DNA from: a virus
Virus record (IMG/VR): IMGVR_UViG_3300022217_000231
Location: 1,779 to 65,778 of that record
Strand: one strand, 5' to 3'
DNA: 64,000 nucleotides
Part shown: in pieces, positions 5,234-56,884 of the stretch
How positions within the stretch are numbered: position 1 is the stretch's first letter
Layout of the letters: the number at the start of each line of letters is the position of its first letter
The notes under the pieces: model-generated
The model's input: only the letters and a program-made list of their open reading frames with translations
Databases searched by the model: none
What the model was told of the DNA's origin: nothing
Translations under genes and position numbers: made by a program

Positions 5234-5986
5234 TTATCCTACCATAAATCCCAATGGGCTAGCATATTTTTCTATTAATTCTTCATCTAATTTTTCTTTA
5301 TCTAATTTCCCTTCTTCTAAATACATGCTAGCATTTAAAGTAGAACCGTCAGGTAACGGAGTTCCTTCATATTTACCATATATTAATCCTAATGAAATTT
5401 TAGATAATGCTAAAACATATTGTTTAATCCATATTTCATTATATAAAGGAGAAGAACCTGTTCCAGGATCATATTCAGTATATATTTCTAAAACTCCAGA
5501 GTGATTTTCTGCAGGTATAGGAGTAACAGTTAAAGTATTACCATATTTATTATATTGAAGAAAAAATGAAACTGTTAATAAATTTCTAGACATTTCTACA
5601 TATTGCATACCTAATTCATATGTTGTTAACCCAGAATAACCACCTGTATCCCAAAGTAAATTATCAAAAGCACCCTGATTATATAAAATATTCATACTAG
5701 AAAATGGAGTATTAATTCCTCCAGAAGCAGTATCAGATTCAAAATTACTAACACATTTAGTTCCCGATGGTAAATTATAAGTATCAATTCCAGCTGATAA
5801 AGTTAATACATAAGCACTAGAATAGATAACATCCTCACTATATTCTGAAAACTTTTGTATGGCGGTGTCAATGTGTTGCTCTATCGCTGAATCGCTAAGC
5901 TCCACATTAACGGTATTCCCGCCTATTTCACGATATATCCAATTTACTAATTGAAGCTTAGTTGTTACATTACCAGATACTGCCAT
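5234..5986 (-). CDS. gp13: Neck protein (T4 gp13-like)
   Basis: L...I.R.IGG..VNVEL....I...ID.A...F.EY; W.K.Y.LA..K...G....KY....LP.G..LN.......EG..D...L.EEL......P.GF..G. Confidence 0.9.
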   Translation of the reverse strand: MAVSGNVTTKLQLVNWIYREIGGNTVNVELSDSAIEQHIDTAIQKFSEYSEDVIYSSAYVLTLSAGIDTYNLPSGTKCVSNFESDTASGGINTPFSSMNILYNQGAFDNLLWDTGGYSGLTTYELGMQYVEMSRNLLTVSFFLQYNKYGNTLTVTPIPAENHSGVLEIYTEYDPGTGSSPLYNEIWIKQYVLALSKISLGLIYGKYEGTPLPDGSTLNASMYLEEGKLDKEKLDEELIEKYASPLGFMVG

Positions 5987-7157
5987 TATAATATGTTACC
6001 TATCCTTTTTAATATTTCTTCCTTATTGTCTTTCCATTCATAATCGAATATTTCTATATATTCGCATCCATACTTTTCTATCATATGTTGCTTCTTAATT
6101 TGATCTCGTATATAAGTGTCCTTTAAGCTACCACCAAATGGACAAGTTTCATCTATATTATTTTCAACTAGCTGATCATATTTCTCTTTATTAATATGCC
6201 AACATGAACCATGATATTCTATAACTAAAATAATATTTTTAGTATCTTTTAGTCTAATTACGAAATCATATGCACCTGCCTTTATTTCAGGTTTATTAAT
6301 ATATTGAGTCCATTCTCTTTTATTTTTATCATTATCGTCACCATAATATAATTCATAATTCATATTTTGATCTAAATAAAAATGACTAATTATTTCTTTA
6401 ATCATATTAGTAGCTTCTTTAGATTTACCAGTCATATAATTACCATTTAATGCTCTAGTTTCAGCAGATAGATAACCTCCCTTAGTATAACTTGTTAATC
6501 CATTTTCATCTTTAATTTTTCTGGTTTTTACCATTTTTATAGTACCTATTTGAATACTATCAAGGCCATTTTCATCTATATTATTCTTTTTAGATGCTAC
6601 TACTTTATATGCTATAGTTTTACTTATTGTCATTCCGGTAACAGGATCTATATTCTTTTTAGTTTTACTAGATTTTAGCGCACCTCTTTGAAATCCATTA
6701 TTACCATTTTCATCTATATTATTTAGATTACCTTCTCTGCTTTTTTCACCACGTATTTTACTTTTACTTTTACCTGTAATTGGATCTACTTGAGACCATA
6801 ATTTACTATTATAAGCACCCATTCTTTCATAAGAATTTAACCCATTTCATCTACATCGTCTCTTTTATATTTTGTTATACATTCAGCATTGCCACAAACA
6901 GTAGAATATCCTGTTTTAAATCCATAAAAGTTTACTAAACTATCACAATATTTACATAATTGAATAGAATTTAAATTATGTACTATATGATAAATTCTTT
7001 CAGCTATAGTATGTTTTCTATCTAAATAAAAAGTTATAATATTTAAATCCTCGTATTCTTTTTTAAATCTACGTTTAAAAATAGCTGAACTATTTCTATC
7101 CCAAGGTCTTCCATCTAGATAAATTTTAATACATTCACTTAATTCTTTCCTATTCAT
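5986..7157 (-). pseudogene. Frameshifted homing endonuclease (Zn-binding N-domain, DENG/DPxTG repeats, Vsr/EDxHD-like nuclease); ORFs 6837-7157 and 5986-6822 are one gene
   Basis: C-terminal YDF.I......VIEYHGSCWH..........D..K......G...I.I...EW. Adding one A at ~6845-6847 joins the ORFs as VDENGLNSYERMG, matching the downstream IDENG/KDENG repeats. Confidence 0.65.
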
Positions 7158-7173
7158 TTGTTCTAACTCCTTA

Positions 7174-7181
7174 TATAAATA
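7174..7181 (+). promoter_or_regulatory. Late promoter TATAAATA pointing into structured-RNA copy A
   Basis: Exact octamer 6 nt upstream of the motif's P1 stem. Confidence 0.55.
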
Positions 7182-7186
7182 TTTTT

Positions 7187-7253
7187 ATAGAGGGACAGTA
7201 GGCAACTAACTCCGCCTATGATTATATGCACCCACATATAATCTTACCTCTAT
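7187..7253 (+). ncRNA. Candidate structured RNA, three-way-junction motif copy A
   Basis: P1 ATAGAGG/CCTCTAT, GA, P2 CA(g)TAGGC/GCCTATG, P3 ATTATATG/CATATAAT, CTTA. Confidence 0.6.
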
Positions 7254-7259
7254 TTTAAT

Positions 7260-7267
7260 TATTTATA
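7260..7267 (-). promoter_or_regulatory. Late promoter TATAAATA for the homing endonuclease / neck operon
   Basis: Minus strand TATAAATAATTAAAA. Confidence 0.65.
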
Positions 7268-7290
7268 TAAAGTAATTTTTAAACAAATAG

Positions 7291-7325
7291 AAAGGCCTCG
7301 TTAATTCATTTTAACGAGGCCTTTT
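7291..7325. terminator. Rho-independent, likely bidirectional terminator
   Basis: AAAGGCCTCGTTAA-ttcatt-TTAACGAGGCCTTTT perfect 14-bp hairpin with A/T tracts on both sides. Confidence 0.8.
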
Positions 7326-7532
7326 CGAATATTAAATGATTATGAATATTATCTAGAAGACAAACATTATCATAGCAATATCTAATCCAAAACCATAATA
7401 TGCCCACCATGGGGGTTAGTTATTATCTTATAACTTTCTAATGTAGAACCTAATATACCATATATAATAACTAATATAAATATTGCGATTACTTTATACA
7501 TTTTTCAATCTCCTTATTAATTTTTAATTTAT

Positions 7533-7561
7533 ATTATATAATATCATAAAACAAAAGTCAA
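7533..7561 (-). promoter_or_regulatory. sigma70-type early promoter module (copy 1)
   Basis: TTGACT-17 bp-TATAAT followed by AAGGAGATTGAAAAATG; drives a ~39-aa hydrophobic ORF (MYKVIAIFILVIIYG...). Confidence 0.8.
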
Positions 7562-7574
7562 GTAAATAATAAAA

Positions 7575-7582
7575 TATAAATA
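7575..7582 (+). promoter_or_regulatory. Late promoter for gp17
   Basis: TATAAATAATTAAAAA upstream of 7620. Confidence 0.7.
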
Positions 7583-7619
7583 ATTAAAAAGTAAGTCAAT
7601 GTAACTAAAAAAATATTAT

Positions 7620-9260
7620 ATGAATATACCAAATACCTCTCAAATAGATCCACATTCAATACCATTCAATACTCCTCTACCTGGAAGTTTAAAAGAATTA
7701 CCTAGGTGGGCGACTTATCAGGGAAATAAACTGATCAAGAAGTCAAATGTAAAAATTCAATTTGAAGAATGGCAAATTGAGGAGATAGCTAAATGTGTAA
7801 ATGATGTAACTTATTTTGTTGAAAATTTTGTATATATAATTTCTCCAGATAAAGGAAAACATTTAATTGAATTATATGATATACAATATGATTATTTAAG
7901 ACATTTAGATGATAATCGATTTAGTATTGTCATGGCAAGTAGACAAGTAGGAAAATCTACATGTTGTGCTATATATGTATTGTGGTATATTTTATTTAAA
8001 AGTCAACAAAAAGCTGTCATTATAGCTAATAAGGAAAAAATAGCCAAGGACATCTTCCAAAAGGTAAGAATTGCCTATGAGCAACTTCCAATATGGTTAC
8101 AAATAGGAGTAAAAGAATGGGCTAAAACATCTTGTGTTTTAGAAAATGGTAGTTCTTGTTCATGTGAAGCTACTACAGAAGATGGTATGCGTGGAATTAC
8201 AGGATCCTTGATAATTCTAGATGAATATGCGTTTATCAAAAAAAATATTGCCGATGAATTCTATACTAGTATGTATCCTGTCATCACTTCTAGTAAATCT
8301 TCTAAGCTTGTAATTGTAAGTACGCCCAAGGGACTGAATCATTTCCATCATATGTGGAAAGCTGCTATTAATAAAATTAGTACATTTGCTCATTTTTTAA
8401 TGTTATGGAGTCAAATACCTGGTAGAGATGAAGAGTGGAAAGAAGAAACTATAAAAAATATTGGGGAGCGTAGATGGCGTCAAGAATTTTCGTGTGAGTT
8501 TTTAGGGTCATCTAAAACTTTAATACAGCCAGAATCTTTAGAAGCATTTACCTCATTAGACCCTATAGAAACTAAATATGATGGTTATTTTAAAATATAT
8601 AAGAAACCTATTAAGAATCACCAATATGTAGTAGGTGGAGATATCGCTAAAGGCACAGGTGGCGATTACTCTACTGCACAAGTTTTAGATATAACTACAT
8701 TTCCAGTTAAACAAGTCGCTGTATATAGAAATAATACAATTGGAACTAGAGCATTTGCTAATTTGATAGTAGATATTTGTGAAATGTATAACGACTCATA
8801 TCTCATGTTAGAAAACAACGATATCGGACATGGTGTAGTTGACTTAGTTTGGCGAGATATAGAATACGAAAATCTTGTAAATTTTAGTTATGACAAAAAG
8901 AATAAAGCTGAAATAGGTATACGTTCTACTAAAAAATCTAAATCCGTAGGGTGTGATCTATTAAAAGAAATGATTGAAGAAAATAAAGTAGAAATTATAG
9001 ATGCTGACACTATATATGAGTTATCAAATTTTACAGAATTTAGGGAAGGAATTTTTAAAGCGGCAGATGGAGAACATGATGATTTAGTTATGGCTTTATT
9101 ATGGGTATTGTTCGTTTTTAAAACAGAATGGGTCGATAAAGATGAAATGTTAATAATTGAAAAGGTTGAAGAAAGAGAAGAGGAAGAACCAGTAGATCCG
9201 GTATTAGGAGATGAAGCACAAGATAAAGAAATAATGAGTTTAAATTGGACAGCAATATAA
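7620..9260 (+). CDS. gp17: Terminase large subunit (T4 gp17-like)
   Basis: Q motif (L...Q), Walker A SRQVGKST, Walker B LIILDEYAF, VSTPKG coupling motif, RNase H-like GGDIAKG.G.DYS and HDDLVMAL. Confidence 0.97.
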   Translation: MNIPNTSQIDPHSIPFNTPLPGSLKELPRWATYQGNKLIKKSNVKIQFEEWQIEEIAKCVNDVTYFVENFVYIISPDKGKHLIELYDIQYDYLRHLDDNRFSIVMASRQVGKSTCCAIYVLWYILFKSQQKAVIIANKEKIAKDIFQKVRIAYEQLPIWLQIGVKEWAKTSCVLENGSSCSCEATTEDGMRGITGSLIILDEYAFIKKNIADEFYTSMYPVITSSKSSKLVIVSTPKGLNHFHHMWKAAINKISTFAHFLMLWSQIPGRDEEWKEETIKNIGERRWRQEFSCEFLGSSKTLIQPESLEAFTSLDPIETKYDGYFKIYKKPIKNHQYVVGGDIAKGTGGDYSTAQVLDITTFPVKQVAVYRNNTIGTRAFANLIVDICEMYNDSYLMLENNDIGHGVVDLVWRDIEYENLVNFSYDKKNKAEIGIRSTKKSKSVGCDLLKEMIEENKVEIIDADTIYELSNFTEFREGIFKAADGEHDDLVMALLWVLFVFKTEWVDKDEMLIIEKVEEREEEEPVDPVLGDEAQDKEIMSLNWTAI

Positions 9261-9328
9261 AAAATTGAAAAAGTAAAAATTAATTTATATAAATAATTAA
9301 AATAAATATAAGGAGAATTTTTTATAGA

Positions 9329-9604
9329 ATGGATATATTAGATAAAATTAATGAAAAACTAAATAAGGAAGTAATTAGAGAAGGCAAGCCCAGTCATCAA
9401 ATAGAATCAAAGGATTTGATTAATTATAAATTGAAACAAATTATAGCCAGATCTATCAGTGGAGAAAAACTTAGTAAAGCATTATTTTTTAATTATAATT
9501 TTAAAGATGGTTCATTTATTACAGTAGAAAAAAATAAGAAAGAAATTGGAAGATTTAAGGAAAAAGATTCTAATAAAGCAATAGAATTATATAATTCTAT
9601 TTAG
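9329..9604 (+). CDS. Small protein with MDILDKINEKLNKEVIRE leader
   Basis: Late promoter at 9288-9295 and AAGGAG RBS; shared leader. Confidence 0.6.
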   Translation: MDILDKINEKLNKEVIREGKPSHQIESKDLINYKLKQIIARSISGEKLSKALFFNYNFKDGSFITVEKNKKEIGRFKEKDSNKAIELYNSI

Positions 9605-9814
9605 AGAAAAAGATAGATATTTATCGCATTTAAATGAAGCCCAAGATCTAAATGAATTAGGAGCTACTTGTGAATGGTTAGATGAATATCATTATAATCC
9701 TAGTAAAATAAAGAAATTATACCATGAAGGAGAACACCCAGAAGGGTGGATAAATAAAAGATTAAAAAGATAAATATAAATAATTAAAAAGAAGATTTAA
9801 AGGAGATAAATAAA

Positions 9815-11452
9815 ATGCCAGGTGTTCAACTTAGCCCAGGTGTAAAAATCACTGAGGAAGATCAAAGTACTAGAATATCGCCAGCTGCTGTTTCAATTGG
9901 TGTATATGTAGGTCGTAGCATTAAAGGTCCAGTTTGGAGTCAGACACTTGTTACAAATGAAAGGGAATTTGCAGAATTGTTCGGTGATCCAACTGATGAT
10001 AATTATGAAGATTTTTTCACAGCTGCTGGATTTTTAACTTATGGTAATACATTATATTACACAAGAGTTGTAGATGCTGCAACTGCACAAAATGCTCAAA
10101 TTGATGTTACTACAACATCTGCATCTGCGGGTACTGGAGATTATATTGCAGATTGGGAAGATTATACACCAAGTTTTGGCGGAACTGATAAATTTCAATT
10201 CTTTGCTAAATATCCAGGTGCATATGGAAATACAGAATTTAAATTAGTACTGATTAATAATACCGATTGGGCTAATATTTCTACAGTTGCAGCTGTTTCT
10301 GCGTATGAATCAGATGTTGATACTGGACCAAGCACTACAGATGAATCAGTTATTTTAGTCTATGTTAAAAATGTAGATGGTGATTATGAATACCAAGAAC
10401 AATGGTTAGTATCAGATACTGCGGGAACTAAAGATAATTTTGGTAACAATATTTACATCAATGAAAGAATTAATAGAGGGTCAAAGTATATATTAGCCTT
10501 TAATAATACTAGTACCTCAGGCGAACCTGAGTCATTTGGTCAATTATTACCAGCAGGTGGTGTAGATGGAACAGAAAATGAAAGTGATATTGTAGATGGG
10601 TATGCATTATATGATAATCCTGAAGATATATCAATTAATTATGTTATCGGTGGTAGTCATACAGTGGTAGCTACTCAAAGTAGTTTAATCACTCTAGCCG
10701 ATGTAACAAGAGCAGATTGTATAGCAATCTTAGATGTTCCAAAAACCGATGTAGTTAATATAGCTAATCAAAGCACAGCTATTAGTAATGTAGTTGATTT
10801 TAGAAAGAACGAACTAAATGCTAATGCCAAAAGAGCTGCTCTGTACGCCAATTGGCTGAACATTTACGACAAATATTCGGATGTATATAGATGGGTACCT
10901 TGCTCTGGATATGTAGCTGGTATTTATGCCCATAGTGCTAATGTAACAGATGCTTGGAGGGCACCTGCTGGGTTAAATAGAGGAATACTTAATAATATTG
11001 TTAGAGTAGCAATTAATCCTAATTTAGCACAAAGAGATACTTTATATAAAAATCAAATAAATAGTATAGTTAAATTCCCTGGACAAGGTACAGTAGTGTG
11101 GGGGCAAAAGACTTTATTATCAAAACCTTCTAGCTTTGATCGAGTGAACGTGGTGAACTTGTTTAATTATTTGGAATCTTCTATAAAAGTGAGTGCGAAA
11201 TATGTTACATTCGAACCGAATGATGATTTAACAGTTGCAATGTATAGAAATATGGTTGAACCATTCTTAGATGACGTAGTTGGTCGTAGAGGAATTGTAG
11301 AATATGTCTTAGAATTTGATAGAGATCCCGAACTTATCGAGAATAATCGATTTGTTGTTAGGCATTTTATAAAGCCAACAAAGGCTGCTGAATTTATTCA
11401 GCTAATATTTATCAGTTCGCGACAGGATGCAAATTTTAGTGAAATAGGATAA
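9815..11452 (+). CDS. gp18: Tail sheath protein (T4 gp18-like)
   Basis: SPGV...E.D.S; W.APAG.NRG; RD.LY...IN.I..FPGQG...WG.KT.......FDR.NV..LF; IKPT...EFI.L.F; late promoter at 9775. Confidence 0.97.
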   Translation: MPGVQLSPGVKITEEDQSTRISPAAVSIGVYVGRSIKGPVWSQTLVTNEREFAELFGDPTDDNYEDFFTAAGFLTYGNTLYYTRVVDAATAQNAQIDVTTTSASAGTGDYIADWEDYTPSFGGTDKFQFFAKYPGAYGNTEFKLVLINNTDWANISTVAAVSAYESDVDTGPSTTDESVILVYVKNVDGDYEYQEQWLVSDTAGTKDNFGNNIYINERINRGSKYILAFNNTSTSGEPESFGQLLPAGGVDGTENESDIVDGYALYDNPEDISINYVIGGSHTVVATQSSLITLADVTRADCIAILDVPKTDVVNIANQSTAISNVVDFRKNELNANAKRAALYANWLNIYDKYSDVYRWVPCSGYVAGIYAHSANVTDAWRAPAGLNRGILNNIVRVAINPNLAQRDTLYKNQINSIVKFPGQGTVVWGQKTLLSKPSSFDRVNVVNLFNYLESSIKVSAKYVTFEPNDDLTVAMYRNMVEPFLDDVVGRRGIVEYVLEFDRDPELIENNRFVVRHFIKPTKAAEFIQLIFISSRQDANFSEIG

Positions 11453-11462
11453 ACTTTAACTT

Positions 11463-11537
11463 ATAATTTAATAACGAGGACAGCGATTGATCCCGTTGGA
11501 ATTACTTCGTTTAATTCCTTACTCGTTATTAAATTAT
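11463..11537 (+). ncRNA. Candidate structured RNA, three-way-junction motif copy B
   Basis: P1 16-bp ATAATTTAATAACGAG/CTCGTTATTAAATTAT, GA, P2 CAGCG/CGTTG (one G-U), P3 GAATTA/TAATTC, CTTA. Confidence 0.65.
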
Positions 11538-11563
11538 TATAAATAATTAAAAAAGAGGATTTG

Positions 11564-11784
11564 ATGGATATATTAAATAAAATAGATAATATTTTAAATG
11601 AAAAATCTAAAAGACCAGAATTAAAAAAGGAAACTATGTTACTTATAGATCTGGAACTAAATATGAAGGTGAAAGTGGAATAGTTGTTAGTAAAGAAACT
11701 ACTGGTAATTATACTCTTAAAATGGATGATGGTAGTAAAATAACAGAAGTCCCTAGAGATGATTTAATTTTAAATAAAAAATAA
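11564..11784 (+). CDS. Leader-family protein with SH3/KOW-like domain reached by a -1 shift at A-AAA-AAG (11623-11629)
   Basis: 0-frame MDILNKIDNILNEKSKRPELKK stops at 11683; -1 frame KKGNYVTYRSGTKYEGESGIVV...YTLKMDDGSKITEVPRDDL stays open to 11784. Confidence 0.55.
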
Positions 11785-11801
11785 TTAAAAGAAGAATTAA
11801 T

Positions 11802-12041
11802 ATTGATATATTAAAGAAAATAGATAATATTTTAAATGAAAAATTAAAAACTATGACAGATCATGCCAATGCTATATTAGATATATATGAAAAAATGGCA
11901 GCAAAGGGGGATCCTAAATCAATAGATTTTAAAGATATGTATTTAGATTATGCGGGGTTTCACCGTTTAGTTCCTAAAGATTTAAAGGCTGAAATTAAAA
12001 AACAAGTAAAAGAAAGAAAAATTAAAGTAAGATTAAGTTAG
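11802..12041 (+). CDS. Leader-family small protein (ATT-started extension of ORF 11853-12041)
   Basis: In-frame ATT-GAT-ATA-TTA-AAG-AAA-ATA-GAT-AAT-ATT-TTA-AAT-GAA reproduces the (M)DILxKIDNILNE leader. Confidence 0.5.
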   Translation: MDILKKIDNILNEKLKTMTDHANAILDIYEKMAAKGDPKSIDFKDMYLDYAGFHRLVPKDLKAEIKKQVKERKIKVRLS

Positions 12042-12058
12042 TAATAAAAAATAAACTT

Positions 12059-12106
12059 TGGCGGGGACAGCCACTAGGTTGGGAATGCCTCCTCCCTTAC
12101 CCGTCA
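12059..12106 (+). ncRNA. Candidate structured RNA, three-way-junction motif copy C
   Basis: P1 TGGCGGG/CCCGTCA (one G-U), GA, P2 CAGC/GTTG (one G-U), P3 GGA/TCC, CTTA; GC-rich island in AT-rich DNA. Confidence 0.6.
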
Positions 12107-12812: not shown

Positions 12813-13322
12813 ATGGCATTTTCAGTAAATGATTTTAGATCAAAAGTTAGAGATTTGGCCAAGAATTATATGTTCGAGGTGGAAATCGTGTTCCCCGTAG
12901 CTATAGGTTCATCCGATCTAGTTAACATACTAGCACAATCTACTAGTATTCCAGGTAGAACTGCAGAAGCGATAGATGCACCATTCATGTCACAACAATA
13001 TAAATTGGCAGGTGGAATTACATATGATCCATGGACAGTGACATTTAGAGTAGATGATAATTATGATATCTATAAAAAATTTAGAGCATGGTCAGAATTA
13101 ATAAAAGGAACAGAATCTAATATTGCAGCATTCCCAGCGCAATATAAGGCCCGTCCGGCAATTTTTCAGCTAGATAATTCTGGTAATAGACTTAATAAAA
13201 TTACATTGATTGGAGCATGGCCAAGTGTAGTTGCTGAAATAGCAGTCGATACTACAACTTCTGACATCCAAAATTTCGACGTTACTTTCGAAATGGATTC
13301 GAATATTTTCTCAGTAGAATAA
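12813..13322 (+). CDS. gp19: Tail tube protein (T4 gp19-like)
   Basis: F.S....LA....FEV; .Q.T.IPG......I..PF......AG...YD.WTVTF..D....I...F..W; QLD..G...K...L.G.WP..V..I..D......I..F.VTF..D. Confidence 0.93.
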   Translation: MAFSVNDFRSKVRDLAKNYMFEVEIVFPVAIGSSDLVNILAQSTSIPGRTAEAIDAPFMSQQYKLAGGITYDPWTVTFRVDDNYDIYKKFRAWSELIKGTESNIAAFPAQYKARPAIFQLDNSGNRLNKITLIGAWPSVVAEIAVDTTTSDIQNFDVTFEMDSNIFSVE

Positions 13323-46426: not shown

Positions 46427-47239
46427 ATGAATAATAACTTATCAGGACTTAGTGCCATCCACATCGAACTCACTTCTCGTTGTAACAAAAACTGTCACAT
46501 GTGTGGTAGAAGAAAAGTAGAAAAAACTCTACCAGATTTAGCTGACTATTCTAGCGATATAACACTTAACCTTCTAAAAAAAATATCTAGGCAATTACCA
46601 CATAATATTTTAGTTATTCTACATTGGAACGGAGAGCCAACCTTGTATCCTAGACTAAGATCATCTTTAAGATTGTTCAATAATCAAATTACTACTTTTA
46701 ATACAAATGGAAAATTACTTTTAGCTAAATCGGATGACATTATAAATAATTTAGATACATTAGTACTTTCTACTTTTGAAGATGATCCTGAATGGGAAAG
46801 TCAATTCAAAGTATTTCAAAAGTTCTTATATAAAAAAGGTAATAAAAAGCCTAATACTATTATCAGATGTTTAGGAAATATATCTGAAGAAAGAATGGAG
46901 TTATATAAAAGTACTGGTTCTATTATAGCTAAACGTATATTACACTCTCCTATGGGAAGCTTTAAGTATACTAATGAACCAACTATTCCCGAAGCTGGTA
47001 TTTGTTTAGATTTTTTAAATAGAGTAGCTATTAATACAAAAGGTGAAGTATCACAATGTGTCAGATTCGATTCTAATAGAGCTGGTATTATAGGTGATAT
47101 TAATATACAATCTTTAAGTGAAATATGGAATGGAGAAATAAGAATGAATTATTTAGACAAACATATTAGAGGAAAGCGTAACGAAATTCCATTATGTAAA
47201 GAATGTGAGTTTTGGGGCGTTCCTAGAGGAGGAGATTAA
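46427..47239 (+). CDS. Radical SAM / SPASM-domain protein
   Basis: IELTSRCNKNCHMC; GEP.LY; TNG.LL; C-terminal C.....I...G.V..C...G....SL.EIW...C..C; late promoter at 46381. Confidence 0.88.
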   Translation: MNNNLSGLSAIHIELTSRCNKNCHMCGRRKVEKTLPDLADYSSDITLNLLKKISRQLPHNILVILHWNGEPTLYPRLRSSLRLFNNQITTFNTNGKLLLAKSDDIINNLDTLVLSTFEDDPEWESQFKVFQKFLYKKGNKKPNTIIRCLGNISEERMELYKSTGSIIAKRILHSPMGSFKYTNEPTIPEAGICLDFLNRVAINTKGEVSQCVRFDSNRAGIIGDINIQSLSEIWNGEIRMNYLDKHIRGKRNEIPLCKECEFWGVPRGGD

Positions 47240-47603
47240 AATGGATAAATTTACACCAAATACTTTTGTTAAGAAAGGATGGGGTAGTGAGCTTTGGATA
47301 GTTAACAATGAATTATATTGTGGAAAAGTTCTTTCTTTTAGTATAGGTAAAAAATGTTCATGGCATTATCATAAATTAAAGGATGAAACTTTCTATATTT
47401 CTCATGGTAGCTTTTCTATTAAATACTCATATGAAGATGATATAGAAAAAGCAGATAAGATTATATTAAGTATTGGACAAAAATTTCATGTTCCCGTTGG
47501 ATTAAGACATCAAATGAAAGCTTTAGATCCTAATTCAGAAATAATAGAATTTTCTACAAAACATCATGATTCAGATAGTTATAGAATAATAAAAGGAGAT
47601 TAA
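47205..47603 (+). CDS. Cupin-fold sugar isomerase-like protein
   Basis: V.KGWG.ELW......YCGK.L......SWHYH..KDETF. Confidence 0.8.
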   Translation: MSFGAFLEEEIKMDKFTPNTFVKKGWGSELWIVNNELYCGKVLSFSIGKKCSWHYHKLKDETFYISHGSFSIKYSYEDDIEKADKIILSIGQKFHVPVGLRHQMKALDPNSEIIEFSTKHHDSDSYRIIKGD

Positions 47604-55167: not shown

Positions 55168-55956
55168 TTAACCTATAATCCTTTCTTCATCACTAAAACT
55201 AGACTTATATACTTTCATATCTTTAAGGTCTAAATAAGCGGAAAGAATTTCTGGTTCATAAAGAGAAATATCTAATTTTTTATTTCCTTTTAAATATGGA
55301 TGAAAATTGGCGCCAAAAGCTACTTGTTTAGTATCTAATTTTTCAACTTCAGATATTATATGTAGCGCTACTGAATCTAAATCATACATTAGTCCTTTAG
55401 CTCTACCTTGGGGCAATAAAGGTAAAAGAACAAAATATTCTATATCTTTATGATATAATTGATATAAAGCCTTAAACCTCTCAACATCTTGTTTAAAACT
55501 TAGTAATATATGAAAATTTGTTCTTACTCCATTTTCTATACAATCTTTAGTAGCATTTGTCCATTCATTTATTAAATGATTATGACAAGTAATAGCTACT
55601 CCACCACAATATTTTTTAGTAGCTTCAATAATTTCTTTTGTCATACCTATACCGTTAGTAGTATAATTTGGAGTAATTCCAAGATCATAAAAAGTTTTTA
55701 AAATTTCAATAAAATCTGGATGTTCATTTGGATTACCACCACCAATAGCTACTTGAAATGGTCGCTGATTTTCTGTCATTGGGCCATAGAAATTGTTTAT
55801 CTTTTCTATTACATTAGGATAATGCTCTTCTTGAATAGAGTTTTGGTAGCAGTTATGTACTAAAATATTGTTAGCAAAATAATTATGATAGTTTTTAATA
55901 CCTAAATTATATACAAATCCTTTATGTTTTCTTTTTGATATTTTTTTTATTTTCAT
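55168..55956 (-). CDS. Split-intein C-fragment (35 aa) fused to radical SAM C-extein
   Basis: True start ATG 55956 with GAGGGAG RBS; MKIKKISKRKHKGFVYNLGIKNYHNYFANNILVHN|CYQNS...QVAIGGGNPNEHPDF...NYTTNG. Confidence 0.9.
   Translation of the reverse strand: MKIKKISKRKHKGFVYNLGIKNYHNYFANNILVHNCYQNSIQEEHYPNVIEKINNFYGPMTENQRPFQVAIGGGNPNEHPDFIEILKTFYDLGITPNYTTNGIGMTKEIIEATKKYCGGVAITCHNHLINEWTNATKDCIENGVRTNFHILLSFKQDVERFKALYQLYHKDIEYFVLLPLLPQGRAKGLMYDLDSVALHIISEVEKLDTKQVAFGANFHPYLKGNKKLDISLYEPEILSAYLDLKDMKVYKSSFSDEERIIG
55852..55956 (-). mobile_element. Intein C-terminal splicing fragment (IntC)
   Basis: Block F VYNL.I...HNYFAN and block G ILVHN followed by +1 Cys. Confidence 0.9.
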
Positions 55957-56884
55957 AACATACTCCCTCTTTATAGTGACGGTGTTTATCAATTTTACCA
56001 TGACATGATGCACAGTAAGTGATTCCTATTTGTAAATTATCAAAATGATAATTTCTTATTCTGTGACATATTAATTCAAATTCTTTACTTTCAATATCTA
56101 TATCCTTTATAGATTTCCATATATTTAATTTTTGTAAGAAATTTTTAATAATATCTCTTAAAGGTTCTATATGATGTACTTCTAGCCTACCTCCTCTAAT
56201 ACTACATAATTGACAAGTATAATCATCCCTTTTTAAAATTTCTATATTCCAGCCAGCTAATCTATATCTTACAATGCCTCCTGCTCTCCCTCCACCTTTC
56301 CATCTAGGATTATCTTTACCAAATCTTTTCTTTATAGTACCAGTAACATAACCTCTTTTAATAGTTTCACTCATTTTTTTAACAGTTTCGGGATTTTTCA
56401 TAGGATTTTTATCCCCGGTCATTCGAATAGATTGTAAATGAGAAAGTTCCTCTTTAGTCATAGGAACTTTTGTTAAATTAGGTCCTCCTTTCCAATTTGG
56501 GTTTTTATCTCCTATTTTACTCTTAGATCGCAAATCACTACTTTTTGATTTACAATCTTCACATATATTTCCTTCTAATGTTCCAGTAGGAGATATATGG
56601 GTGATATTTTTTTCTACTTTTCCAGTGGGTTTCTTGCAATTCCGACAAAGAACTGTAATTTCTATTTTTTCTAGTTTTACATTTTTTCTCTTACATAAGT
56701 TACAATGAGTCCTATTTTGAGTTCCTATAAATGTTTCTTTACAATTTATACAGATTTTTTCATTTATTTTCTTTTTATAACGCTGTTTACCTAATGTTTT
56801 ATGGCATTCTTTATTAGAACAACATCGCGATCTTTTATCTCTGTTTTCATATTCTTCTTGACATATAACACATTTCTTTATCAT
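55922..56884 (-). CDS. Free-standing HNH homing endonuclease
   Basis: Zn-ribbon CxxC repeats, G.KNP.WKGG NUMOD-like repeats, RD.YTCQLC...G..LEVHHI...C..CH..ID. Confidence 0.88.
   Translation of the reverse strand: MIKKCVICQEEYENRDKRSRCCSNKECHKTLGKQRYKKKINEKICINCKETFIGTQNRTHCNLCKRKNVKLEKIEITVLCRNCKKPTGKVEKNITHISPTGTLEGNICEDCKSKSSDLRSKSKIGDKNPNWKGGPNLTKVPMTKEELSHLQSIRMTGDKNPMKNPETVKKMSETIKRGYVTGTIKKRFGKDNPRWKGGGRAGGIVRYRLAGWNIEILKRDDYTCQLCSIRGGRLEVHHIEPLRDIIKNFLQKLNIWKSIKDIDIESKEFELICHRIRNYHFDNLQIGITYCASCHGKIDKHRHYKEGVCYENKKNIKKKT

Follow-up and report, generated by a model that had tools for sequence, protein, structure and literature searches.

A covarying three-way-junction RNA family in phages, with loops complementary to the ribosome-binding sites of neighbouring mobile genes

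What does a structured RNA do when it recurs between the late genes of a phage, next to genes that seem to have been inserted there? The question is raised by a 64,000-nucleotide (nt) stretch of IMG/VR virus record IMGVR_UViG_3300022217_000231 (hereafter the window), which is AT-rich (~26% GC) T4-like phage DNA from a sediment metagenome (whole record, 65,890 bases). Its plus strand carries three copies of a three-way-junction motif, at 7187-7253 (copy 1), 11463-11537 (copy 2) and 12059-12106 (copy 3), for which a sequence-only reading had proposed a self-cleaving or processing element, a binding site for a phage protein or a packaging RNA. None of these roles gained evidence, and the wider family to which the copies belong points elsewhere. 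In this family, two variable hairpin loops are held by a conserved three-way-junction core, and a loop is complementary to the ribosome-binding site (RBS) of an adjacent gene. We consider it probable that the family is a modular anti-Shine-Dalgarno (anti-SD) RNA limiting the translation of the mobile gene with which it travels.

Three copies of one RNA architecture

The coordinates of the three copies were confirmed on the sequence, as was their intergenic position. They share the layout P1-GA-CAG[P2]U(U)G-P3-CUUA-P1', in which P1 is closed by a G-C pair, a GA linker leads to P2, no nucleotide separates P2 from P3, and CUUA leads back to P1'. P2 opens with C-G, A-U and G.U pairs except in copy 1, where a bulged G replaces the G.U, and the G.U pairs of the three copies are specific to the plus strand, as had been noticed initially. 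The copies had been treated as equivalent; the complete cassette context described below exists only at copy 1, copies 2 and 3 being solo elements.

The string GGACAG..CTTAC occurs twice in the window against 0.15 matches expected in the chance control, and GACAG..CTTAC three times against 0.79. When a flanking P1 of at least 6 base pairs (bp) was also demanded, the three copies were the only convincing sites in the 64 kb. A covariance model built from these copies alone (R1) returned exactly them in the window, with 59.7, 58.7 and 43.3 bits and nothing else at E<=10, and so did a second model (R2) built from 22 family members (scores in Table 1). Copies 1 and 2 fold better than their shuffled versions (z -4.9 and -5.1, respectively); the short P3 of copy 3 (3 bp) keeps it near the shuffle level (z -0.7). 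A generic three-way-junction descriptor was uninformative in such AT-rich DNA, with hundreds of matches. Rfam 15, whose families covered include hammerhead, twister, twister-sister, pistol, hatchet, hairpin and HDV-like ribozymes, phi29 pRNA, HEARO and riboswitches, gave no match to the window at the gathering score and none to the copies at E<=10, even when these were searched singly.

Several simple identities were discarded. ARAGORN predicted no tRNA or tmRNA genes in the window, and a tRNA-like nature was dropped for that reason. A terminator was rejected given that copy 3 has no U tract, a mimic of the 16S rRNA 3' end given that it is not conserved across copies, and a put-like antiterminator given that position was its sole evidence.

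A widespread phage RNA family

R1 matched nothing outside the window; homologues with covariation were recovered with IMG/VR pattern scans and with R2. Among the 116 matches listed by a loose pattern, mostly due to chance, at least four were true members with a long P1 and the full architecture. In these, P2 usually begins with CAGCGG and ends with CCGUUG; a pattern based on these ends yielded 38 matches, ~24 of them true, and a variant (CAGCAG/CUGUUG) led to 23 further model matches. R2, with which members score 24-70 bits, also recovered, in whole-record scans, copies that no pattern had selected. Pattern scans and model together gave at least 45 distinct members in more than 30 viral contigs, from AT-rich to GC-rich, one of them in a provirus. 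A complete 213-kb T4-like genome (IMGVR_UViG_3300002895_000002, hereafter G007) bears 16 copies, all on one strand. The endonuclease genes associated with them are all on the opposite strand, and several of these genes are truncated or frameshifted (L185, L190, L192) next to an intact RNA element.

In 13 further member loci, the motif was matched by no Rfam family, the Rfam tRNA model matching only true tRNAs elsewhere in them. R2 had no match in phages T4, S-PM2, KVP40, Aeh1 and phiKT1028, and the family was not found in any of the 151 sampled Pseudomonadota genomes, with 36 candidates scored per genome. The closest phage relatives by sheath protein in IMG/VR, JGI metagenomes and GTDB genomes had at most 49% identity and lacked the motif, and searches with the leader-ORF (open reading frame) family, a repeated promoter module or exact pieces of copies 1 and 3 found no close relatives either. 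The literature searched contains no description of the motif, which may be among the unnamed candidates of PMC10690425. The elements belong to a widespread phage RNA family without an Rfam model.

This wider family supports the initial claim of a structured plus-strand RNA with genuine covariation. In 22 sequences, 94.9% of positions expected to pair did so, against 69.8% in shuffles; in 45 distinct sequences, 92.6% of cells were paired against 67.1%, and double-change cells numbered 219 against 65 expected, a value that none of 500 shuffles attained. Sliding the partners lowered pairing to 55% or less. Covariation affects nearly every pair of P1 and P3. The first four pairs of P2 are almost fixed, and its G.U, present in 40 of the 45 sequences, is replaced only by A.C or U.U; GA is invariant (45/45) and CUUA nearly so. 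The conserved core thus comprises P1 closed by G-C, GA, P2 (CAGCGG/CCGUUG with the G.U wobble), P3 and CUUA. Across the 45 sequences, G.U or U.G occupies 74 cells and A.C or C.A only 15, which indicates that the plus-strand RNA is the selected molecule.

Loops complementary to the ribosome-binding sites of adjacent genes

The proximity to inserted or mobile genes, already proposed for the window, was supported across the family: the adjacent genes encode proteins with NUMOD3, GIY-YIG, HNH and REase Pfam domains. Two arrangements occur. In the sense arrangement, the element starts at about position +1 of a promoter (TTGACA-17-TGnTATAAT in L105, L133 and L155) and an ORF follows within 4-45 nt. 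These ORFs encode HNH+NUMOD3, DUF7487+PD-(D/E)XK (REase) and DUF4379/NUMOD1/CapR endonuclease-like proteins, as well as ParB-methylase and DUF1376 replication proteins. The P3 loop, L3, is perfectly complementary over 6-8 nt to a stretch overlapping the purine-rich Shine-Dalgarno (SD) sequence of the downstream gene; complementarity of at least 6 nt was found in 13 of 14 sense members and in 14% of mismatched pairs. GC-rich members, in which a hairpin and a CU-rich tract also follow downstream, present the L3 target in the loop of a small hairpin with the SD as its 3' arm. L3 and SD would thus meet in cis, as a pseudoknot or a kissing contact.

In one sense member (L155 530-938, minus strand, = G009 80050-80109, on a 93-kb contig), the motif lies ~30 nt after a group I intron (Rfam, 66 bits) and is followed by an endonuclease-like ORF with an SD that pairs with L3, which indicates that intron-associated endonucleases use the element too. 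The P2 loop, L2, is often (G)UAGCU(A) in sense members (L111, L122, L155, L159, L176, L213, L234), a semi-conserved sequence that could enter into a tertiary interaction, such as one with UUA in the CUUA linker. The T4-like members have an anti-SD in its place.

In this second, T4-like arrangement, the order is constant: start of a minus-strand gene, its SD, a plus-strand (N)ATAAATA box, 4-5 nt, P1...P1', 4-7 nt and TATTTAT. The latter is the same late box on the minus strand, so that two predicted late promoters stand face to face. The divergent minus-strand genes encode homing endonucleases from several families (Mob-like with NUMOD3, or GIY-YIG proteins of SegE-like and LEM-3-like types), and a few are decayed. 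On the plus strand, L2 repeats 8-10 nt complementary to the SD and spacer of the divergent gene, and it equals the anti-SD of its own flank over at least 8 nt in 13 of 20 cases, against 6% of mismatched pairs. Since L2 and the flank are identical on one strand, the only pairing they allow is that of plus-strand RNA with minus-strand mRNA. In several copies where the DNA identity is broken (TCTCC versus TTTCC), a 7-bp RNA pairing is kept through U.G, and duplexes with the own target average -12.4 kcal/mol against -8.0 kcal/mol for mismatched pairs. L2 of the plus-strand RNA would act on the endonuclease mRNA of the opposite strand, in trans or as an antisense RNA; in T4-like genomes this RNA would run on into an ordinary phage gene such as gp19.

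In both arrangements, then, one loop would pair with the RBS of a mobile gene next to it, in most cases one for a free-standing homing endonuclease. Complementarity between a loop and the adjacent RBS makes it most likely that the element holds down the translation of that gene.

Copy 1 and its cassette

Copy 1 fits the complete T4-like cassette layout, as judged from its sequence context (Table 1). The plus-strand TATAAATA box would set the transcript start at ~7187, the first base of P1, and the opposing box would drive transcription through copy 1, antisense to it, into the endonuclease genes. In G007, the same plus box is found at the same distance in 15 of 16 copies and the mirror-image box in all 16.

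Table 1. Features of the three RNA copies and their surroundings in the window
Feature	Position	Strand	Remarks
Copy 1 (W1)	7187..7253	+	Three-way-junction RNA; R2 47.7 bits, E 3.6e-10
Copy 1, P1	7187-7193/7247-7253	+	GA 7194-7195; CUUA 7243-7246
Copy 1, P2	7196-7220	+	Loop L2 7204-7213, AACUAACUCC
Copy 1, P3	7221-7242	+	Loop L3 7229-7234, CACCCA
T4-type late promoter box	7174..7181	+	TATAAATA; ends 5 nt before P1; putative activity
Opposing late promoter box	7260..7267	-	TATAAATA; putative
Shine-Dalgarno region of ORF 7157..6837	7163..7170	-	GGAGUUAG on minus-strand mRNA
Zn-ribbon ORF, 106 aa	6837..7157	-	First part of two-ORF homing-endonuclease-like unit
PD-(D/E)XK-type nuclease ORF, 278 aa	5986..6822	-	Second ORF of the unit
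GC-rich hairpin terminator	7291..7324		Putative; called on minus strand; on plus strand, U4 tract after GC stem
Copy 2 (W2)	11463..11537	+	Core 11472-11528; P1 extended to 16 bp; R2 54.0 bits
Copy 3 (W3)	12059..12106	+	Shortest and weakest; R2 36.5 bits
Terminase large subunit	7620-9260		
Tail sheath (gp18)	9815-11452		
Tail tube (gp19)	12813-13322		

Both loops of copy 1 match the endonuclease-like unit. Eight nt of L2 are exactly complementary to the SD of ORF 7157..6837 (-11.5 kcal/mol, as good in 0.3% of shuffled loops); CTAACTCC, within L2, has only two plus-strand sites in the 64 kb, 43 nt apart, and the second, upstream, is the complement of this SD. L3 is complementary to the start region of ORF 6822..5986 (AUGGGUGC, 6815-6822), with a duplex of -13.6 kcal/mol that 0.8% of shuffles equalled. 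Fewer than 1% of shuffled loops therefore did as well as either duplex; the cross-pairings stayed at the shuffle level. Copy 1 would thus place L2 on the SD of the first ORF and L3 on the start codon of the second.

The first of these ORFs aligns weakly (E 0.31) with the N-terminal part of the endonuclease of the sense-arrangement member L122, and the second carries at its end a PD-(D/E)XK domain homologous (E 1e-7) to the nuclease domain of the same protein, with matches to REase_MTES_1575 and DUF2726 that are both below the Pfam cut-off. They are separated by TAA and 14 nt, and their L122 relative is a single 362-aa protein; the split reflects a natural two-gene arrangement or else a broken gene.

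On the plus strand, the 7174 promoter and the 7291..7324 hairpin would delimit an RNA of ~140 nt without any ORF. A riboswitch with this hairpin as platform was considered and dropped, no alternative pairing having been found. A ~30-nt module around the late promoter (..TTTATATAAATAATTAAAA..) occurs at 7249-7281 and 9274-9304 and recurs several times in this phage. It is also present in other contigs of the same sample (run X1), which have the same depth (~81-85) and probably represent the remainder of this phage's genome.

Public sediment runs contain near relatives, among them a 151-nt contig bearing a diverged copy 1. Here, the insertion of a T behind 7218 gives the bulged G7198 a partner, so that a G.U pair forms as in copies 2 and 3, and P3 is rebuilt, with A7224>T and T7225>G matched by CA inserted behind 7239 and a new loop; the DNA differs beyond 7161 and 7269. 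In a related contig (L153/L181), the ortholog of copy 1 has an almost identical P1 and shares the right flank, and differs in P2/L2, in P3 and in its endonuclease, which is of the GIY-YIG type.

Copies 2 and 3 as probable relics

Copies 2 and 3 are found between the sheath and tube genes, with neither an adjoining endonuclease nor a promoter box of their own. Copy 2 starts 11 nt past the sheath stop codon and is directly followed by TATAAATA (11538-11545). Copy 3 has an L2 of 4 nt, a P3 of 3 bp and CCUCC within L3; in a near copy from another sediment sample, the downstream ORF is a different one. This copy-3-like element, with its different ORF, and the diverged copy 1 indicate that the element behaves as a module.

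Two other T4-like lineages have a complete or decayed cassette directly upstream of gp19 (L217 2195-2806 and L215 1939-3307, both on the minus strand). The sheath/tube spacer therefore looks like a recurrent home of these cassettes, which makes it reasonable to see relics here: copies 2 and 3 are probably what remains of cassettes that once occupied a recurrent insertion site, or have otherwise been reused. The first leader-tagged ORF after copy 2 (MMDILNKIDNILNEK..., 11561-11790, plus strand) stops after 40 aa, seems to continue in another frame and is probably a frameshifted pseudogene.

Two candidate targets of copy 3 were rejected as probably due to chance. The start of a cupin-like sugar gene (47241, plus strand) is the best match of both loops among 80 starts, with adjacent matching segments (CCUAG-A-GGAGGAG, window 47222-47243), in a gene that is not an endonuclease. 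A 10-nt perfect complement of L3 (AGGAGGCAUU, 56273-56282, minus strand) lies inside the coding region of an HNH endonuclease gene (55922..56884), not at a translation start; this gene sits between split radical-SAM/intein halves.

Weighing the readings

Several observations count against an anti-SD regulator of mobile genes. None of the public RNA runs searched contains this phage, so we infer transcription, RNA ends and repression from the DNA. TATAAATA occurs in the AT-rich window at chance frequency (42 sites against 42.1 expected in shuffles), and the promoter call at copy 1 consequently draws on where the box lies and on the pattern seen in the family; in this genome a late promoter cannot be called from the box by itself, and its position relative to genes is needed. 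We found no convincing loop target for copies 2 and 3 in the window. That the anti-SD loop is L3 in the sense arrangement and L2 in the T4-like one is unusual. The members were partly collected with patterns demanding GGACAG..CTTAC and filtered on P1 pairing, which makes letter invariance and P1 pairing partly a product of construction; copies found by the model do vary (CUAA, AUUA; CAU, CAA). Finally, simple SD masking leaves the conservation of the junction and of the P2 base unexplained.

This last point leaves room for a sensory or catalytic role of the core. The core might be a sensor, in the form of a riboswitch aptamer or of a site bound by a protein or the ribosome, that makes loop-SD pairing conditional, an extension of the anti-SD model that we regard as unlikely. 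Its appeal comes from the near-invariance of GA (45/45), CUUA and the C-G/A-U/G.U base of P2 among phages that differ widely in composition, and from the hairpin and CU-rich tract downstream of GC-rich members, which resemble an expression platform. This invariance is, however, partly due to the way in which members were collected. The loop that pairs with the SD caps P3 or P2, remote from the junction; P1, a long and stable stem, showed no alternative pairing; the genes concerned have no common metabolic theme, and no ligand or protein candidate was found. More broadly, an invariant core that is an active site or sensor, whether of a new riboswitch class, a module for a host factor or the ribosome, or a new small ribozyme, seems to us an outside chance of the same order. 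If so, homing endonuclease expression would depend on a cellular signal, and the variable loops would make the RNA a naturally programmable trans-acting repressor that selfish genes carry with them.

The element could instead serve mainly the neighbouring phage gene, as a 5' leader or insulator provided by the cassette, with a late promoter and a paired 5' end that stabilise the mRNA and offset the disruptive effect of the insertion. In both arrangements, the predicted +1 of the promoter is where P1 begins, the plus-strand RNA of T4-like genomes would continue into ordinary genes such as gp19, and invading endonucleases need to avoid perturbing their neighbours (reviewed in PMC2988022). Yet any hairpin would suffice for this; such a role explains neither junction conservation nor the copy-specific match of the loops to the endonuclease SD, and copy 1 would run into a putative terminator without reaching an ORF. 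We consider this role rather improbable.

Phage hammerheads and twisters are present many times in a phage genome. If the element were a self-cleaving ribozyme of a new kind or a processing site, it would share with them this multiplicity, a small junction with few invariant nucleotides and variable stems, and the conserved wobble pair beside the junction could be seen in the same light. Nevertheless, known ribozyme models do not match, the loops lack conserved tertiary contacts and have another clear explanation, and cleavage at the very 5' end of a transcript would achieve little; we judge this reading very improbable. Hardly credible is an element acting as DNA (a cruciform, a recombination cassette or an endonuclease recognition site): the module does accompany homing endonuclease genes and promoter boxes and recurs on different flanks, but the 74 G.U against 15 A.C cells and the near-invariant G.U speak for RNA, the stems covary instead of being identical as in recombination repeats, and loop-SD matches survive through U.G wobbles where DNA identity is broken.

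An anti-SD RNA limiting the translation of mobile genes would have wider meaning. Homing endonucleases are among the commonest selfish genes of large phages, and what is known of how they are kept from harming their carrier comes only from a few T-even hairpins, each for a single gene. The scaffold described here travels with four unrelated nuclease families, a methylase and replication genes, in up to 16 copies per genome; it would represent a general control device for mobile phage genes, with loops retuned to the RBS of each target. It would add an Rfam-type family and a marker for endonuclease cassettes and their relics, and, as a natural modular and programmable anti-SD RNA, it might be of use in synthetic biology.

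Comparison with known systems

The closest precedents are the RBS-sequestering hairpins that control the T-even homing endonucleases I-TevI, I-TevII, I-TevIII and segB, and mobE of Aeh1 (PMC2988022). As in these, an RNA structure directly upstream of a homing endonuclease gene contains the complement of its SD, a complementarity upheld here by own-versus-mismatched and shuffle controls, is combined with a T4-type late promoter and presumably limits endonuclease translation. The T-even structures are, however, unrelated simple hairpins, one per gene, whereas here a single conserved three-way-junction family is shared by distant phages. Their late promoter is inside the hairpin, so that late transcripts escape repression, while the boxes of the family lie outside P1, which places the full structure in the promoter's own transcript. 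The anti-SD of the family is also in a distal loop, and the T4-like RNA is encoded opposite the endonuclease strand.

In cyanophage S-PM2, the cis-encoded antisense RNA CfrI connects psbA with the endonuclease F-CphI (Millard et al. 2010, as cited in PMC10690425). The likeness is that the T4-like plus-strand RNA overlaps the 5' untranslated region of an opposite-strand endonuclease mRNA, and the difference is that the family adds a loop directed to the SD outside the overlap and a conserved junction; since S-PM2 has no R2 match, CfrI is not this RNA. Promoter boxes at a fixed distance are what suggests that antisense transcription would cross the endonuclease 5' region in our family.

PeSL elements of T4-like phages combine an early sigma-70-type promoter with a simple terminator stem-loop conserved in sequence (PMC2839356, PMC4122927). 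Like the family, they are compact modules of a promoter plus a structure, occur repeatedly in the variable parts of T4-like genomes and are related to modular gene exchange. In contrast with PeSLs as defined in PMC4122927, which have no link with endonucleases, the family has late-type boxes, a three-way junction with covarying stems and target-matched loops. Hammerhead and twister-sister ribozymes and purine and TPP riboswitches also have a three-helix junction with few invariant junction nucleotides and covarying stems, but the junction strands of the family (GA/none/CUUA) match none of their cores. The anti-SD model follows the known logic of SD sequestration in T-even endonucleases and departs from it in the use of one conserved scaffold with retunable loops.

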